64,000 bases of DNA from positions 8,602-72,601 of the forward strand of contig JANTFI010000001.1 in NCBI GenBank assembly GCA_024763505.1. Direction: 5' to 3'. Below the pieces are notes generated by a model. That model was given only the letters and a program-made list of their open reading frames with translations, searched no databases and had not been told where the DNA came from. Shown here piece by piece: positions 43,233-50,234 of this stretch (the first letter of the stretch is position 1; every line of letters begins with the position of its first letter). The stretch comes from Gammaproteobacteria bacterium (GTDB lineage Bacteria > Pseudomonadota > Gammaproteobacteria > GCA-001735895). The translations under genes were made by a program, and so were the position numbers.

Positions 43233-44027
43233 ATGTTCCTGAGACACGCACAAAATGCGTTGACATTGTCCTGGTATTTGAGTGTCGCATTGGTTATTTA
43301 TATCGGTTGGTCAGTCCGAGAGCAACGCTATCTGTTGGCTGAATCGGGTATTGGCTATTGGCTTGGCATTATCGGCGGAGCCATGATGCTGTTGCTTCTT
43401 TATTATCCGGTTCGTAAACGAAAGCCACGCTGGAAATATTCCGGCTCGATCAAATTCTGGTTTCGCTTCCACATGTTTCTGGGAATCGCGGGTCCAGTAC
43501 TGATTATTCTCCATTCCGGCTATCGACTGGGATCACTCAATGGCACGGTCGCATTTTTCTGCATGTTGATCGTGGCTGGCAGCGGGCTGATTGGCCGCTA
43601 TCTGTACCGGCGTATTCATCATGGCTTGTATGGCGAAAAAATCCGCTTCGAAGAGCTGTATCACAAGGATCAAAGCTGGGAAGAAAAGCTCGCAGAACTG
43701 AAGAATAAATATCCCGAACCGGTGGAAAAGCTCGGTGTTATTGAATCTCAACTGGTACAACACGGAGCCGCTGCCAGCCGTTCTCTCTGGTTTTACCAGT
43801 CGATGCAGTGGCAGTTGCAGACATTGAAGCGACAAATCATTCAGCAGTTGGGAAAAAATTCCGCAGACAGCGCCGGATTTCAGCAACGAATTCAAAGCCT
43901 GAAATCGATCACCAGCCTCGGAGTCCACGAGATTCTGTTTTCATACTGGCATATCCTGCATTTTCCCTTATTCATCATGCTGCTCATCTCCGGCATTACT
44001 CATGTCGTCGTGGTGCATTTTTACTAA
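43233..44027 (+). CDS. Polytopic His-rich membrane protein, candidate b-type cytochrome / quinol-side electron-transfer subunit.
   Basis: 264 aa. About 5 TM helices with conserved-looking His pairs (FRFHMFLGIAGPVLIILHSGY, YWHILHFPLFIMLLISGITHVVVVHFY). Its stop overlaps the start of the first multiheme cytochrome. Confidence 0.45.
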   Translation: MFLRHAQNALTLSWYLSVALVIYIGWSVREQRYLLAESGIGYWLGIIGGAMMLLLLYYPVRKRKPRWKYSGSIKFWFRFHMFLGIAGPVLIILHSGYRLGSLNGTVAFFCMLIVAGSGLIGRYLYRRIHHGLYGEKIRFEELYHKDQSWEEKLAELKNKYPEPVEKLGVIESQLVQHGAAASRSLWFYQSMQWQLQTLKRQIIQQLGKNSADSAGFQQRIQSLKSITSLGVHEILFSYWHILHFPLFIMLLISGITHVVVVHFY

Positions 44028-45592
44028 TGAAAAGGTTATGGACCACATTGTTTCTGCTGGCTCTACTGGTTAGCCAATCGGCCTGGGGTATCAGTCTGGA
44101 AAACCTGTTCTCTCCGGGTGAATTGATCGACGGGCATGCCAAAATCCAGCAAGATTGCAAGCAATGCCATGTGCGCGGGCGTGATCTCACGCAAAACGAT
44201 TTGTGTCTGGATTGCCATGAAAAGGTTAGCGCCGATGTCCACAACCGCAAGGGGTTTCATGGTCGTAGCGAACAAGTGGAATCCGTACAGTGTCGATCCT
44301 GCCATACCGATCACAAGGGCAGGGATGCCGATATTGTGTGGCTGGATCAGGATCGCTTCAACCATGAAATGAGCGATTACCGGCTGATTGGCAAGCACCG
44401 GCAAGCGAAATGCGAGAGTTGCCACGAGTCAGACAAACATTATCGCGAAGCCCCCTCGGCCTGCATTGATTGCCACAAGAAAGACGACGTGCACAAAAAC
44501 AAGCTGGGTAAAAAATGCGGGTCTTGCCATAACCCGAAAGCCTGGAGCAGTGAACAATTCGATCATGACCAGACGGCATTCAAACTCCGCTTTGCCCATA
44601 AACAAGTCGCCTGCGATCTTTGCCATGTCGAAAACCGCTACAAGAAAACGCCGAAAACCTGTGTTTCCTGTCATGCCATCAAGGATGTTCACCAAAACCG
44701 TTTCGGTAATGACTGCAAAGCCTGTCACAACACTGAAAAATGGGAAAAGCCGCGCTTCGATCACGACCGCAATACGCGTTTCAAACTCGAATCCAGTCAT
44801 CGTTCGGTTGGTTGCAACGCTTGCCATGCGCGTACCCGGCAAGCCTTACCCGGAAAAAAATCCAGTCCCCGTCGCTGTATTGCCTGCCACAAGCTCGATG
44901 ATGTGCATCAAGGCGAAAACGGAAAACGCTGTGAGCAATGCCATGCCGAGGATCGCTGGTCGAAAAACAGCTTTGACCATGATCAGGACACGAAATTTAA
45001 ATTGCGCGGCGCTCATGCCAAGGCCAGTTGCGAATCCTGTCATCAGAAAGATTTACGCGGAAAGAAAACCAGCCCGGCCTGTTACAGCTGCCACCAGCAT
45101 CAAGATGCACACAAGGGCCAGGAAGGGGAATCCTGCGAAACCTGTCATAACGATAAAAGCTGGTGGTTGGAAGATGTGCGCTATGACCATGATTTAAGCG
45201 ATTTTCCGTTGCTCGGCCAGCATGCCGTGGTCGGTTGCGAAGCATGCCATTTGTCTTCCGCGTTCAAGGATGTCAAGCAAGCCTGTGTCGATTGTCATGC
45301 AGAAGATGACATCCACGATCAGACTTTGGGGCAAAAATGCCAGCAGTGCCATAACCCGAACGATTGGCTGATTTGGCAATTCGACCACAATCGAACCGAT
45401 TTCAAACTGAAAGGCGCGCATGAAAAGCTGCATTGCCGGCTTTGTCATAACCGGCCAATGGAAAATGCAGTCGAGCTCAAGCAGCAATGTATCGACTGCC
45501 ATCGTGCCGATGATGTGCACGATGGCAATTTTGGCGGCGATTGCGAGCGTTGCCATAACCAGACAGATTTTTCTGTCATTCAAATCAATTAA
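44027..45592 (+). CDS. Multiheme c-type cytochrome with 21 CxxCH motifs, built from 7 triheme (c7-like) modules.
   Basis: 521 aa. Signal peptide MKRLWTTLFLLALLVSQSAWG. 21 CxxCH motifs counted by eye. Recurring module FDHDxTxFKLxGAHxxxxCxxCH...CxxCHxxDDVHxxxxGxxCxxCH. Confidence 0.85.
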   Translation: MKRLWTTLFLLALLVSQSAWGISLENLFSPGELIDGHAKIQQDCKQCHVRGRDLTQNDLCLDCHEKVSADVHNRKGFHGRSEQVESVQCRSCHTDHKGRDADIVWLDQDRFNHEMSDYRLIGKHRQAKCESCHESDKHYREAPSACIDCHKKDDVHKNKLGKKCGSCHNPKAWSSEQFDHDQTAFKLRFAHKQVACDLCHVENRYKKTPKTCVSCHAIKDVHQNRFGNDCKACHNTEKWEKPRFDHDRNTRFKLESSHRSVGCNACHARTRQALPGKKSSPRRCIACHKLDDVHQGENGKRCEQCHAEDRWSKNSFDHDQDTKFKLRGAHAKASCESCHQKDLRGKKTSPACYSCHQHQDAHKGQEGESCETCHNDKSWWLEDVRYDHDLSDFPLLGQHAVVGCEACHLSSAFKDVKQACVDCHAEDDIHDQTLGQKCQQCHNPNDWLIWQFDHNRTDFKLKGAHEKLHCRLCHNRPMENAVELKQQCIDCHRADDVHDGNFGGDCERCHNQTDFSVIQIN

Positions 45593-45875
45593 CGGAGCAG
45601 TGGCGTCGGCTTTACATTGGGCGGATGGTCATTGAGGCAGTGGAAGGCAGGGATGCCTCGAGAACGGGAAAGGCAGTTTTTTTTGGTTATTGTGGTGCAA
45701 GCCTTGTGCGGGTTGATGCGAAAACTTCTCGCTTATTCACAACTGTACTTAGGCAATAACCCACCGGGGAATGAATCCACCAGAAAAAGATTTTACCACT
45801 GCAAGATCCCGAATTCGTTTCGACCTGAATACATTACTTCAGGCCGAACCGGTTTCAGCCACTGAGGAGACGATC

Positions 45876-48035
45876 ATGAAGAACCGCACCGAAATCCGGG
45901 TAGAGCCGCAAACCCGCATGCATTACCAGCCATTCGCGTGGTTGCTGTTGATGTTTGCACTGTTGCTTGCATGGCAAAATGCCAGCTTCGCGGCCCAGCA
46001 ACCTTTTGATCATGATGACACCCGTTTCCCGCTGGATTTTTCTCATGCGCGCGTCAGTTGTGATTCCTGCCATCTGCAAGGCGTTTTCAAGGGCACACCG
46101 GTCAATTGTTCGGGATGTCATGCCAGTGCCAGCCGCATTCAGGCCAGTAGCAAGTCGCCTTCGCATATCAATAGTTCGAATGATTGTGAATTCTGTCATC
46201 AAAGCGGCAACTGGAATGTCGTCACGCGTGTTGACCATTTTGCCGTCAGCGGCAGTTGCCAGAGTTGTCACAACGGCATCAATTCGATGGGCAAAAATCC
46301 GCAACATATCCAGAGCAGCAACCAATGTGATGATTGCCATGTCACATCGAGCTGGAGCAATGCGGTTTTTGATCATGCTGGTGTCATCGGCAGTTGCGTC
46401 ACTTGCCACAATGGCAGTATCGCCACGGGCAAGCATCCAAGCCATATCCTGTCAACCCAGAATTGTGAAGATTGTCATCGAACCATCAGTTGGAAACCGG
46501 CCAGCCGGGTCGATCATGACGCCGTCATTGGCAGTTGCAGCAGTTGTCATAACGGTGTGTTGGCAGAAGGCAAGAATGCCACCCATATTGCAACGACCGC
46601 TCAATGCGACGAGTGCCACAATACCGTGTCCTGGTCATCGGCGACCTTCAATCATGATGGTGTGACTACAGGCTGTTCGAGTTGTCACAATGGCGCTGCC
46701 GCCAAAGGCAAGCATCCACAACATATCGCTTCGACCAATGAATGCGAAGCTTGTCATGCGATCAATCGCTGGGCTCCGGCAACCCGGGTCGATCATGATG
46801 CCGTGAGCGGTAGTTGTTCCAGCTGTCATAATGGTGTGATTGCGACTGGCAAGAGCGCTGACCATTTGAATACAAGCAGTGAATGCGACAGTTGTCATAG
46901 CACGATCAACTGGAATTCGGCCAGTTTCAACCATGATGGTATTACCGATGCCTGTTTCAGTTGCCATAACGGTGTGCAGGAGACGGGTAAAACGCCGCAA
47001 CATATTTCGACCACCAATGATTGCGAACTATGCCATGCACCGTTTGGCTGGGCGCCAGCAACAAGGGTGGATCATGATGCAGTTACCGGCACTTGCTCCA
47101 GTTGTCATAACGGTGTGACTGCCATCGGAAAGAGTCCGCAGCATATTGCCACCAACAGCGAATGCGACAGTTGCCACAACACTATCAACTGGATCTCGGC
47201 CAATTTTACCCATGACGGAATCACGTCTTCCTGCTCGAGTTGTCATAACAGTGTGCAGGCGACCGGCAAGAATCCGCAGCATATAGCCTCAAGCAATGAC
47301 TGTGAACTGTGCCATACCAGCATCGGCTGGATACCGGTGACCCGGGTCGACCATGATGCGGTGAGTGGAACATGCTCGAGTTGTCACAACGGTGTCACGG
47401 CAACCGGTAAAACCGCCGCTCATGTCACGACCAGTAGCGAATGTGATAGCTGTCATACATCCACGGTAAGTTGGAGTACGGTGAATTTTGATCATGCGGG
47501 CGTAACCGGAAACTGTATCAGTTGCCACGATGGTATTACGGCCACGGGCAAGAATCCTCAGCATGTCTCTACCACTAACGAATGCGTGCTATGCCATTCG
47601 ACGGTGGGCTGGGCGCCGGTCCTCAAGGTTGATCATGATGCGGTGCTGGGATCCTGTTCGAGTTGTCATAATGGCACCGTTTCTACCGGTAAGCCGGCAG
47701 ATCACTTTGTCACTGTCAAGGAGTGTGACTATTGTCATTCCACCGTTTCCTGGCCGAGTCTGACCTTTACTCATCAGTCGGTGAATTACCCGGGTGACCA
47801 TCGCGGTTCACTCAGTTGCGTGAGCTGTCACACCGCCAACAGTGAAACCATGATCTGGCCGTTCCCGGCTTATAAGCCAGATTGCGCAGGCTGTCACGCC
47901 AGTGACTATCGACAAAACAAGCATGAAAACTTTAATAATGGCTTCTTCACGGTCAGTGAATTGAGAGACTGCACCGGTGCCTGCCACTCTTCTGCAGGGC
48001 ATCACCGGATTACTGACAGGAGTTGGGGAAATTGA
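45876..48035 (+). CDS. Multiheme c-type cytochrome with 27 CxxCH plus one CxxxCH, built from about 13 tandem paired-CXXCH repeat units.
   Basis: 719 aa. GAGGAG Shine-Dalgarno 7 nt upstream. Signal peptide. Repeat unit about 45 aa: HIxSSNxC[DE]xCH...W...[VF][DN]HDxVxGxCSSCHNGVxATGKxPQ. Confidence 0.85.
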   Translation: MKNRTEIRVEPQTRMHYQPFAWLLLMFALLLAWQNASFAAQQPFDHDDTRFPLDFSHARVSCDSCHLQGVFKGTPVNCSGCHASASRIQASSKSPSHINSSNDCEFCHQSGNWNVVTRVDHFAVSGSCQSCHNGINSMGKNPQHIQSSNQCDDCHVTSSWSNAVFDHAGVIGSCVTCHNGSIATGKHPSHILSTQNCEDCHRTISWKPASRVDHDAVIGSCSSCHNGVLAEGKNATHIATTAQCDECHNTVSWSSATFNHDGVTTGCSSCHNGAAAKGKHPQHIASTNECEACHAINRWAPATRVDHDAVSGSCSSCHNGVIATGKSADHLNTSSECDSCHSTINWNSASFNHDGITDACFSCHNGVQETGKTPQHISTTNDCELCHAPFGWAPATRVDHDAVTGTCSSCHNGVTAIGKSPQHIATNSECDSCHNTINWISANFTHDGITSSCSSCHNSVQATGKNPQHIASSNDCELCHTSIGWIPVTRVDHDAVSGTCSSCHNGVTATGKTAAHVTTSSECDSCHTSTVSWSTVNFDHAGVTGNCISCHDGITATGKNPQHVSTTNECVLCHSTVGWAPVLKVDHDAVLGSCSSCHNGTVSTGKPADHFVTVKECDYCHSTVSWPSLTFTHQSVNYPGDHRGSLSCVSCHTANSETMIWPFPAYKPDCAGCHASDYRQNKHENFNNGFFTVSELRDCTGACHSSAGHHRITDRSWGN
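46080..47720 (+). repeat. Intragenic tandem DNA repeats (about 135 bp unit, about 12 copies, diverged) encoding the paired-CXXCH modules.
   Basis: Recurrent ...gtcgatcatgatgc(g/c)gt...ggcagttgc(a/t)c(c/g)agttgtcataa(c/t)gg... segments at regular spacing through the gene. Confidence 0.7.
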
Positions 48036-48104: not shown

Positions 48105-50234
48105 ATGATAATTAAAAAAATAGTTGCGGCACTCCTGTTGCTCGTGCTTGTCTGGTCTCCTGTTGCCATGCCAGCGGAAACTGTATTATCGGGTGTCGAA
48201 ATGGTTTTGAAAAAATCGGCCGGAACAACACATCTCAAGCAGTACACACTGATTCTGGCCTCTTATGAAAAAATGCCGGCCGGTACTGAGCTAAAAAAGT
48301 TGTCGCGTCTCGACAGTAACTGGGTTTATTTCACCAAAGTGAATGTAAAAAACCGGGTTTATTATCGCCTTGTGGTCGGAAATTATTCGACTCTGAAACA
48401 GGCTCGCAGCGTGCTTGCCGGGTTTCGCAAACAATTCAGCGGAGCCTGGATTCATAAAAGAGATACGTCAGAAATAAAACTGTTGGCTGTAAAAGTGCCG
48501 ATGCTGACCCGCCCATCGGTAACTCGGCCAGGTTCGAAAACATTGCCGGTCAAACCGGCACAAAAAGCAACGTCGTCGGTTACAAATTCCGATATGAAAA
48601 AGGAGCAAGCGCTTACCCGCGACGGGAGGCAATCCAGAAATGTTTTCGCCGAAAAACTGTTGTCGCAATCACGCCAACTGTTGCTGGACCGCAAATACGC
48701 GCAACTGGTTAAGGTCAGCAACAAGGTTATAGAAGTCGGCAATGCCGAACAAAAGCAACGGGGCATGCAATTCGCCGGACTGGCGCGAGAGCGGCAACGC
48801 AAGTTCGCTCAGGCGATTGCGATTTATAAGCGCTTTCTCGAGCAATACCCGGACAGTTCATTGGCACGCAAGATTCAATCCCGCCTGAATACCCTCAAAA
48901 CCATGAATCTTGAACCCAGAACCCGAATGGCCAGACGCAGCAAACAACGCAGTGATGATGGCTGGTCGCTGACCGGGTCCTTTTCCCAGTATTACCGTAA
49001 GAATTTCAATGACACGACCGAGAATGGAAATGAAGTGATCAATGATTCGCTACTTACTGATATCAGTCTGTACGCGCGAAATCGTACACAAAGCAGCACA
49101 ACTATCATCCGATTCGATGGAGGGCTGGTGAGTGATTTTCTGGATGATAGCAACGACAGCAACCTGAGTCGCGCTTCGCTGCGTTATACCAGCCACGATG
49201 CCGACTATGAAGTTATCGCCGGGCGCCAATCGAGAACGGCAAAAGGCGTACTCGGTCGATTCGACGGGGTGGTCTATAGTGGGCTGTCACATGAAAACTG
49301 GGATTACAGCCTGTATGCAGGCTTTCCGGTGCAATCTTCGTCCGATGGTTTCAAGTCCGCACGGCGTTTTATTGGCAGCAATCTCAGTCTGCAACCGGCG
49401 GAAAAAATGGAGCTGGATCTGTATCTGCTGTTTCAGCAAAACGAAGGCTTGACCGATCGTCAGGCGGTCGGCTCACAGCTGCAATACCGCAGTGACAAAG
49501 GGTTCCTGTTCACGATTTTTGATTATGATTTTTTCTATAAAGAGATCAATGACTTGACCGCGATTACGAATTATCGCTTCAGCTCTGTCCTGACTCTGAA
49601 TCTTACCCTTAACTACCGAAATTCGCCGACGCTTACGAGCTTGAACGCGATTCAGGGGCAGGGGGTGACTACATTCGAAGAGTTGACCCGTTTATACCCG
49701 GAGGATGAGATTTATCAGTTGGCCGCAGACCGGACCAGCAAAAGTAAAAATCTGTTTCTTAACGTCAGTTACCAAATCGATCAAGCGCACCAGCTCGATA
49801 CCAGTATTGCGGTTTCGCAAGTCGAAGAAACGGTGGCTTCGGGCGGCGTCGAAGCGGCTCCGGCCAGTGAGGATTTCAATCTATCGAGCAGCTACACCAT
49901 TAACGGTTATTTTCTGCCGGATGATTTCACCACCTTCGGGCTCAGATATTCTGACACCACGTCTTCCCACAGTCTGTCGTTTCGCTTGCGAGCACGGTTC
50001 AAGGGAAGTGAAGGATGGCGATATGATCCGAGACTCCAACTGGATTATCGCGAAAGTAAAACCAGCGGTGTTCAACAGTGGATTGTAAGGCCGAAATTCA
50101 AGGTCAAATATAAACCCAACAAGAAGACAAGCCTGGAAGCCAGTGTCGGCATCGATTATTCAAATTTTGATTTACCGGAGCTGGACGACCAACTGACGAC
50201 CAATTTCCTTATCGGTTATCTTTACCGGATATAA
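48105..50234 (+). CDS. Secreted SPOR-domain + TPR-like + C-terminal beta-barrel protein (putative outer-membrane component).
   Basis: 709 aa. Signal peptide. SPOR-like segment (VYFTKVNVKNRVYYRLVVGNYSTLKQARSVLAGFRKQFSGAWI). Helical TPR-like region. About 430-aa C-terminal region with alternating-hydrophobic, aromatic-rich beta-strand pattern ending ..IGYLYRI. Confidence 0.6.
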   Translation: MIIKKIVAALLLLVLVWSPVAMPAETVLSGVEMVLKKSAGTTHLKQYTLILASYEKMPAGTELKKLSRLDSNWVYFTKVNVKNRVYYRLVVGNYSTLKQARSVLAGFRKQFSGAWIHKRDTSEIKLLAVKVPMLTRPSVTRPGSKTLPVKPAQKATSSVTNSDMKKEQALTRDGRQSRNVFAEKLLSQSRQLLLDRKYAQLVKVSNKVIEVGNAEQKQRGMQFAGLARERQRKFAQAIAIYKRFLEQYPDSSLARKIQSRLNTLKTMNLEPRTRMARRSKQRSDDGWSLTGSFSQYYRKNFNDTTENGNEVINDSLLTDISLYARNRTQSSTTIIRFDGGLVSDFLDDSNDSNLSRASLRYTSHDADYEVIAGRQSRTAKGVLGRFDGVVYSGLSHENWDYSLYAGFPVQSSSDGFKSARRFIGSNLSLQPAEKMELDLYLLFQQNEGLTDRQAVGSQLQYRSDKGFLFTIFDYDFFYKEINDLTAITNYRFSSVLTLNLTLNYRNSPTLTSLNAIQGQGVTTFEELTRLYPEDEIYQLAADRTSKSKNLFLNVSYQIDQAHQLDTSIAVSQVEETVASGGVEAAPASEDFNLSSSYTINGYFLPDDFTTFGLRYSDTTSSHSLSFRLRARFKGSEGWRYDPRLQLDYRESKTSGVQQWIVRPKFKVKYKPNKKTSLEASVGIDYSNFDLPELDDQLTTNFLIGYLYRI

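Follow-up and report, generated by a model that had tools for sequence, protein, structure and literature searches.

A predicted PCC3 periplasmic cytochrome with 21 hemes in seven triheme units from an uncultured gammaproteobacterium

Results

The cytochrome gene and its heme motifs

The stretch of DNA analysed here, referred to as the window, comprises 64,000 nucleotides of a gammaproteobacterial assembly (GCA_024763505.1, contig JANTFI010000001.1, positions 8,602 to 72,601) and carries on its forward strand, at positions 44027–45592, a gene for a predicted periplasmic c-type cytochrome with 21 heme-binding motifs. Judged from motifs and gene order, the product is very probably the periplasmic multiheme cytochrome of a PCC3 gene cluster in an uncultured gammaproteobacterium. 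The joint reading, in which this PCC3 subunit consists of seven triheme units and forms a heme wire spanning the cell envelope, is considered probable. The family, the number of 21 hemes and the idea of a wire are already published (PMC5566968). The assignment as a periplasmic 21-heme cytochrome is based on the open reading frame (ORF) and its translation, the 21 CxxCH motifs, 21 invariant distal histidines and matches to the Pfam c7 and c3 families.

The gene is a single ORF of 521 codons and a stop codon, and its ATG overlaps by a single base with the stop codon TAA of the gene before it (TAATG). The protein starts with a Sec-type signal peptide, MKRLWTTLFLLALLVSQSAWG, that covers residues 1–21 (nt 44027–44089), and no lipobox cysteine is present in the 521 residues. 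A preliminary description made from the letters alone had counted 21 CxxCH motifs, and an exact search gives the same number; all 42 cysteines fall inside these motifs, and the variants CxxxCH, CxxxxCH and CxxCK are absent from the protein. The heme density estimated at that stage, about one per 25 residues, is also close, since the mature protein has about 24 residues per heme.

A database search with the cytochrome gave 5823 clusters at E≤1e-5, with full-length relatives in at least 533 species-representative genomes, and the cytochrome of the nearest species representative is 61% identical. In an alignment of 57 orthologues with 21 hemes, at 51–73% identity, all heme cysteines and histidines are invariant, and so are 21 additional histidines, three in each of the seven units described below. 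In unit 1 these are His 37, 78 and 96, and in units 2–7 they are the histidine of an FDH motif, a histidine located 4–5 residues before the first heme and the histidine of a DVH motif. The protein has only three methionines (positions 1, 115 and 478), none of which recurs once per unit. The 21 invariant extra histidines, together with the lack of a methionine that recurs once per unit, suggest that all 21 hemes have bis-His ligation, and this would fit an electron-transfer protein without a substrate-binding heme or a catalytic site. An enzyme function was also considered and rejected, as there is no open-site or CxxCK heme.

Seven triheme units

Cutting the protein 24 residues before every third CxxCH, followed by MAFFT alignment, gives seven units that align in one three-heme register, in agreement with the seven-fold triheme repeat proposed earlier. 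The distances between the motifs cycle through 16–21, 18 and 32–34 residues, with only the first triad deviating (16, 29 and 40). The repeat is about 67 residues long and is found in six canonical copies and one divergent N-terminal copy, each with three CxxCH motifs within 66–76 residues, and the consensus of the unit is W....FDH.....F.L...H....C..CH...C..CH...DVH....G..C..CH. Units 2–7 show a pairwise identity of 34–47%, and unit 1 is 27–32% identical to the others, lacks FDH and has the conserved His 78 and His 96 in its place. The FDHD.T.FKL.GAH and DDVH motifs that had been ascribed to every unit are accordingly found in six of them, with unit 1, which has no FDH, as the exception.

All seven units are read from the forward strand. 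Unit 1 (residues 22–104, nt 44090–44338) is a divergent cap at the N-terminus whose three hemes are at C44, C60 and C89, and its region is matched by Pfam Cytochrom_c3_2 and Cytochrom_CIII over residues 37–101. Units 2 (residues 105–171, nt 44339–44539) and 3 (residues 172–238, nt 44540–44740) are canonical repeats, both placed by the unit alignment and unit 2 also by profile hidden Markov models (HMMs) of the unit types. Unit 4 (residues 239–310, nt 44741–44956) is the least conserved, with a basic loop between its first two hemes that is longer than elsewhere, and unit 5 (residues 311–379, nt 44957–45163) is the one whose best-matching units are most often multiplied in longer homologues. 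Unit 6 (residues 380–445, nt 45164–45361) belongs to a conserved C-terminal pair and is followed by unit 7 (residues 446–521, nt 45362–45589), which caps the C-terminus with three hemes and has in His 469 an additional histidine that is almost invariant.

No tandem repeat is detectable at the DNA level within 44027–45592, indicating that the repeats are ancient, and a recent expansion of a DNA repeat in this gene was rejected for the same reason. Orthologous units are 54–76% identical and paralogous units 33–48%, indicating that the layout with seven units is also ancient.

The number of hemes varies among the homologues. Among the 120 best, 57 have 21 hemes, 32 have 24 and 20 have 27, while 30 hemes are found in three, 33 in five and 36 in one; apart from two odd proteins, with 20 and 37 hemes, the counts are multiples of three, indicating that the triheme unit, as defined from sequence, is the step by which the length changes. 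In the longer homologues each unit was assigned to a type with seven HMMs, one for each unit type. Type 1 is always first; types 1 and 2 almost always open these proteins and types 6 and 7 usually close them, and in between the number of units varies, with best scores for types 2 and 5 and less frequently for types 3, 4 or 6. The end units thus appear to be special. In 78 species-representative loci that were read through, the cytochrome has 21 hemes in 69 and 24 in nine (L043, L044, L049, L050, L052, L065, L070, L077 and L079). The latter are labelled Thiobacillus, Thiobacillaceae, Sideroxydans, Gallionellaceae or Betaproteobacteria, except L049, which is labelled Enterobacteriaceae, and the Gallionella-labelled and all remaining loci have 21. 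Since the versions with 24 hemes are confined to a few lineage labels, the length of the periplasmic cytochrome looks lineage-specific.

A probable PCC3 gene cluster

In the definition of He et al. (2017), PCC3 comprises a porin, two cytochromes, one extracellular and one periplasmic, and an inner-membrane protein (PMC5566968). According to the same study the inner-membrane protein has about 300 residues and five helices, with WX3HX13H occurring twice, in helices 3 and 5, and SGXXG once, in helix 4, the median number of hemes is 34 in the extracellular and 21 in the periplasmic cytochrome, and the extracellular cytochrome is rich in Thr, Ser, Ala and Gly besides its many hemes. The cytochromes are repeat-rich with few residues per heme and were proposed to be molecular wires (PMC5566968). 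In Gallionellaceae the periplasmic subunit has 21, 24 or 27 hemes and gave long linear AlphaFold models (Hoover et al. 2023, PMC10734462).

The window has the same four-gene layout, with all genes on the forward strand. Immediately upstream of the cytochrome, and translationally coupled to it, is a gene (43233–44027) for an inner-membrane protein of 264 residues with five predicted helices, presumed to be a di-heme cytochrome b. It contains WFRFH-x13-H (residues 76–94), WHILH-x13-H (residues 239–257) and SGLIG (residue 117), and these motifs are kept in 73–74 of 76 homologues; a search of its profile against the PDB gave only coiled-coil noise in a loop.

The gene downstream (45771–48035) encodes a presumed extracellular multiheme cytochrome with 27 CxxCH and one CxxxxCH motif at a strict spacing of 23–24 residues, with 12.7% Ser, 9.2% Thr, 8.1% Ala and 6.5% Gly. 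The listed start at 45771 is probably too far upstream, and translation probably starts at an internal Met before a hydrophobic segment near residues 56–73. A 279-bp tandem repeat, corresponding to four hemes, is located at 46768–47284 with 75% DNA identity, and the surface cytochrome therefore seems to have expanded more recently than the periplasmic one. Among its homologues the number of hemes ranges between 4 and 80 and follows no fixed step, unlike in those of the periplasmic cytochrome.

The fourth gene (48105–50234) encodes a presumed outer-membrane barrel of 709 residues with a signal peptide, an N-terminal SPOR domain, a TPR and alternating hydrophobicity towards the C-terminus. Homologues of this protein end with GYRxxF, with the terminal Phe present in 44 of 57. 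A C-terminus of the GYRxxF type with a final Phe is a signature of outer-membrane barrels. The SPOR domain, which is peptidoglycan-binding, hints at a conduit that is tethered to the cell wall.

Gene order was compared across species-representative genomes at 80 loci, many of them truncated. In 78 of these the gene for the membrane protein lies ahead of the cytochrome gene, a second cytochrome follows in all and the barrel is present in 59, and the gap from the stop of the membrane protein to the start of the cytochrome is commonly between -26 and +29 nt. The loci are labelled, among others, Gammaproteobacteria, Thiohalomonadaceae, Chromatiaceae, Thiodiazotropha and tubeworm symbiont, and also Thiobacillus, Gallionella, Sideroxydans and Steroidobacteraceae. 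The identity is 40–44% to the syntenic genes in Gallionella, Sideroxydans and Gallionellaceae loci from metagenome-assembled genomes (L045, L054, L065, L079 and L080).

The cluster thus agrees with the published PCC3 systems in the motifs of the inner-membrane protein, in a repeat-rich periplasmic cytochrome with 21 hemes, and in a Ser-, Thr- and Ala-rich surface cytochrome with 28 hemes. The closest described counterpart of the 21-heme protein is the PCC3 cyt-c_p, encoded by Slit_1447 in Sideroxydans lithotrophicus ES-1 and with homologues in Leptothrix and in a tubeworm symbiont, with which it shares the four-gene cluster and the inner-membrane motifs, the family median of 21 hemes, the density of about 24 residues per heme and the many repeats. 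Differences from the published clusters are the N-terminal SPOR and TPR parts of the barrel and the origin of the window in an uncultured gammaproteobacterial lineage.

A putative heme wire across the periplasm

From the observed motif content, the repeats and their conservation, the synteny and operon structure and the motifs in the partner proteins we infer bis-His heme ligation and a linear chain, with a length, contacts and a direction of electron flow that might be as follows. The cytochrome would leave the cytoplasm by the Sec route and receive 21 hemes, bound covalently, which would form one continuous chain of about 15–20 nm according to a published relation between heme number and length. 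One end of the chain would contact the co-translated five-helix membrane protein, the presumed di-heme cytochrome b, and the other would enter the outer-membrane barrel and meet the 28-heme surface cytochrome, so that the assembly would conduct electrons across the cell envelope as a fixed complex. Docking at both membranes would fall to the conserved end units, and the variable middle units would set the length in steps of three hemes. We regard such a periplasm-spanning wire as moderately likely. Edwards et al. (2020) have suggested that periplasmic cytochromes carrying 21–24 hemes might bridge the two membranes, with about 27 hemes covering 200 Å (PMC7096707).

The decaheme MtrA and MtoA proteins of MtrCAB and MtoAB (6R2Q) offer a functional analogy, as a bis-His heme wire with a minimum of peptide encoded beside a barrel and a surface cytochrome, and MtrA is also weakly matched by the unit profile (E 6e-4). 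The PCC3 cytochrome differs in having twice as many hemes, in a triheme rather than a pentaheme repeat, and in having a dedicated inner-membrane partner, so that it may not need soluble shuttles. Membership in the MtrA/DmsE family was rejected, as the score with TIGR03508 is 17.8 bits against a cut-off of 192, and membership in the NrfB family was also rejected with a score far below the cut-off.

Several observations weigh against the PCC3 wire. By the published relation 21 hemes would reach about 155 Å, which is less than a periplasm of 200 Å, and the full-length AlphaFold2 model made with 57 orthologues is poor, with a predicted local distance difference test (pLDDT) score of 56, and gives no support for the shape or the length. 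The barrel of the window ends with GYLYRI and so has Ile rather than the terminal Phe. The link to PCC3 is an indirect one, drawn from the defining motifs, the synteny and the Gallionellaceae loci, and papers up to 2026 still call the function of PCC3 predicted.

Relation to cytochrome c7 and class III cytochromes

The preliminary description had likened the unit to cytochrome c7 (PpcA), and that comparison stands only in part. As far as sequence profiles can tell, the unit is a remote relative of the class III (c3/c7) cytochromes with a c7-like heme density, and is neither a demonstrated c7 domain nor a member of the Geobacter polymer family. The cytochrome passes the broad Pfam model PF14522 (Cytochrome_C7) with 90.2 bits at a cut-off of 24.8, and it also passes the c3 families PF14537 and PF02085 and the MtrC/MtrF domain model (44 against 30 bits). 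A profile of 60 units has its top PDB match in GSU1996, a dodecaheme c7 polymer from Geobacter (3OV0, E 1.5e-5), and hhalign between the unit profile and an alignment of 30 PpcA-family proteins gives a probability of 68–89%; the PpcA query was checked and is 100% identical to a database entry. On the other side, NCBIfam TIGR04257, the c7-type nanowire triheme domain, fails with 16.4 bits (E 0.0076) against a cut-off of 40, NF043011 (cytochrome c7) has no match in the protein, a PpcA-family HMM scores -22 bits overall on the whole cytochrome, and PpcA itself is reached by the unit profile with an E of only 0.58. The profile also matches nine-heme c3, MtrF, MtrA, HMC, OmcZ and STC, and these matches are only 10–100 fold weaker, indicating that the c7 signal is largely one of CxxCH spacing. 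A phmmer search of the whole cytochrome against PDB sequences gave nothing significant, and fold searches found no structural match. An AlphaFold model of two units, made from 85 repeat pairs, has a pLDDT of 83.

The ligands in the unit come in the order His, His, heme, heme, His, heme. The c7 order, His17, His20, heme I, His47, heme III, heme IV, is not the topology seen in the units. The best matches of the Pfam models, TIGR04257 and the PpcA HMM are all one heme out of step with the units that start at FDH. In such a shifted register, for example at residues 428–493, the His of DVH and heme 3 precede the first two hemes of the following unit, with the DVH His corresponding to His20, the Ala-His before heme 1 to Ala-His47 and T-P-K-T-C to G-P-T-K-Cys65, while His17 has no counterpart and the W..FDH..T.F.L segment becomes an insertion that carries a replacement His. 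The two registers score alike in hhalign (88.8% over 39 columns for the FDH-first and 82.9% over 47 columns for the shifted one), and both account for all 21 histidines. If the shifted register were the structural one, the protein would consist of a cap with two hemes, then six c7-like domains and a cap with one heme.

In comparison with the c7 proteins of the PpcA family, the unit has the three hemes per about 70 residues, here predicted to be bis-His, in common, and differs by the lack of a significant direct sequence match and by the inserted W..FDH..T.F.L. The polymers GSU1996 and GSU0592 (12 hemes, 3OV0) and GSU2210 (27 hemes) likewise consist of tandem triheme units with short linkers and a similar number of residues per heme, and are soluble periplasmic proteins. 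The PCC3 cytochrome differs from them in failing TIGR04257, in the spacing and order of its ligands, in having all hemes predicted to be bis-His, where each GSU1996-type domain has one His-Met heme (PMC10138318), and in the location of its gene inside a porin-cytochrome operon. A polymer of seven c7-like domains would not have been new in kind, since the nine-domain, 27-heme polymer GSU2210 of Geobacter (PMC10138318) and the PCC3 family with 21 hemes were already known.

Alternative explanations

That the cytochrome is a chance cluster of motifs, a pseudogene or an assembly artefact has a negligible probability. Shuffling its residues 20,000 times gave 0.29 motifs on average and never more than 4, as against 21 in the real protein, the ORF is intact and has a signal peptide, full-length orthologues at 40–73% identity keep every cysteine and axial histidine, and the same contig was assembled independently in Logan, with an identical product recorded both there and in NCBI. 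The 21-heme protein could also be a true member of the Geobacter c7 polymers, with seven PpcA-like domains, that serves mainly as a soluble electron store (capacitor) in the periplasm. We consider this unlikely, even though three hemes per about 67 residues is the density of PpcA, PF14522 is passed, GSU1996 (3OV0) is the top PDB match of the unit profile, the PpcA-family comparison by hhalign is favourable, and a capacitor has been suggested for PCC3 (PMC10734462). Set against it are the failure of TIGR04257 and the missing match to NF043011, the negative PpcA-family score, an axial His order unlike that of c7 with an ambiguous register, and the only 10–100 fold weaker matches to nine-heme c3, MtrF, MtrA, HMC and OmcZ; furthermore, the His-Met heme found in each GSU1996 domain (PMC10138318) is missing, and the tight operon linkage to the membrane protein and the porin favours a fixed complex such as the wire.

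A further alternative concerns the direction of electron flow in the wire and the gene at 41794–43113 on the reverse strand, divergent from the cluster across an intergenic region of 119 bp (43114–43232), that encodes a predicted membrane-anchored iron-sulfur (Fe-S) flavoprotein of 439 residues. At the N-terminus is a membrane helix with basic residues behind it, and the protein further has a ferredoxin-type di-cluster domain with one CxxCxxCxxxC and one atypical C-x5-C-x3-CP motif, and a TrxR/YpdA/FNR-like domain for flavin adenine dinucleotide (FAD) and the pyridine nucleotide NAD(P), suggesting a possible cytoplasmic partner that would give an NAD(P)H-linked entry to the conduit. The flavoprotein would then oxidise NAD(P)H and pass electrons outwards through the di-heme-b protein and the 21-heme wire to an extracellular acceptor, and the conduit would be a split analogue of the NOX/FRE ferric reductases rather than a pathway of Fe(II) oxidation tied to the quinone pool. 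Both the outward flow and the kinship with NOX/FRE seem rather doubtful to us. They draw on the domains of the flavoprotein, on its homologue (43–75% identity) adjoining the cluster in 70 of the 80 loci despite rearranged gene orders, those of Gallionella and Sideroxydans included, and on the resemblance of the membrane protein to the ferric-reductase transmembrane domain noted by He et al. (PMC5566968). Counting against them, the connection comes from gene neighbourhood alone, with the flavoprotein gene on the strand of the cluster in few loci and divergent in most, the ferredoxin domain has an unusual second cluster motif, any contact with the conduit and any activity are hypothetical, and the organisms in which PCC3 is enriched, Fe(II) oxidisers and sulfur-oxidising symbionts, are those for which inward flow is usually proposed (PMC5566968, PMC10734462). 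A PCC3 that extends over three compartments, from NAD(P)H, FAD and Fe-S through di-heme b and a 21-heme ruler to the barrel and the surface cytochrome, is likewise a tentative idea with the odds against it. In that scheme the length of the ruler would be set in triheme steps, to 21 hemes in gammaproteobacterial and 24 in betaproteobacterial loci, and the end units would dock. If it were true, PCC3 would be a bacterial, envelope-spanning analogue of NOX/FRE with outward flow, instead of the Fe(II) oxidation that is usually assumed. The paper by He et al. (PMC5566968) makes no mention of FAD, pyridine nucleotide or ankyrin, and no mention of Slit_1445, which by its number lies beside Slit_1446, was found in the literature searched.

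Other genes in the window

Next to the flavoprotein gene, and also on the reverse strand, is a gene (39782–41797) for a secreted protein of 671 residues that, besides its signal peptide, carries Sel1 repeats and numerous ankyrin repeats. The two genes are neighbours in 49 of the 80 loci, mostly gammaproteobacterial, and no homologue of the Sel1/ankyrin protein was detected in the Thiobacillus, Gallionella and Sideroxydans loci. As a speculation, it could serve the long cytochromes in the periplasm as a scaffold or chaperone.

Further upstream of the cluster are four genes, at 30125–36489 on the reverse and 37448–39772 on the forward strand. Their products are a TSP3-repeat/PKD-like protein of 1158 residues, a Ser/Thr kinase of 920 residues with TPR repeats, a nitronate-monooxygenase/FabK-like protein and an arsenite-methyltransferase-like protein; only the last two were checked in the related loci, and no homologues were found there. 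A full-length transfer-messenger RNA (tmRNA) gene is located at 20440–20814 on the reverse strand (Rfam RF00023, 205.7 bits) and adjoins purL. With purL, the tmRNA and a pst-pho operon, the surroundings are those of an ordinary chromosome.

Implications

No mention of the triheme-unit rule, of fixed ends with a variable middle or of the Fe-S flavoprotein neighbour was found in the PCC3 literature searched. What may go beyond the published work is the rule of triheme steps, the constancy of the ends around a variable middle and the fit to c7 in two registers. The window adds a PCC3 member from an uncultured gammaproteobacterium and does not overturn current views. In iron oxidisers, in symbionts that oxidise sulfur and in many uncultured Proteobacteria, PCC3 is among the most widespread of the predicted systems for extracellular electron transfer. 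A conserved second histidine for all 21 hemes points to a pure electron-transfer chain, and the change of length by whole triheme units between fixed ends, together with a flavoprotein gene that travels with the cluster, sharpens the hypotheses about this family.

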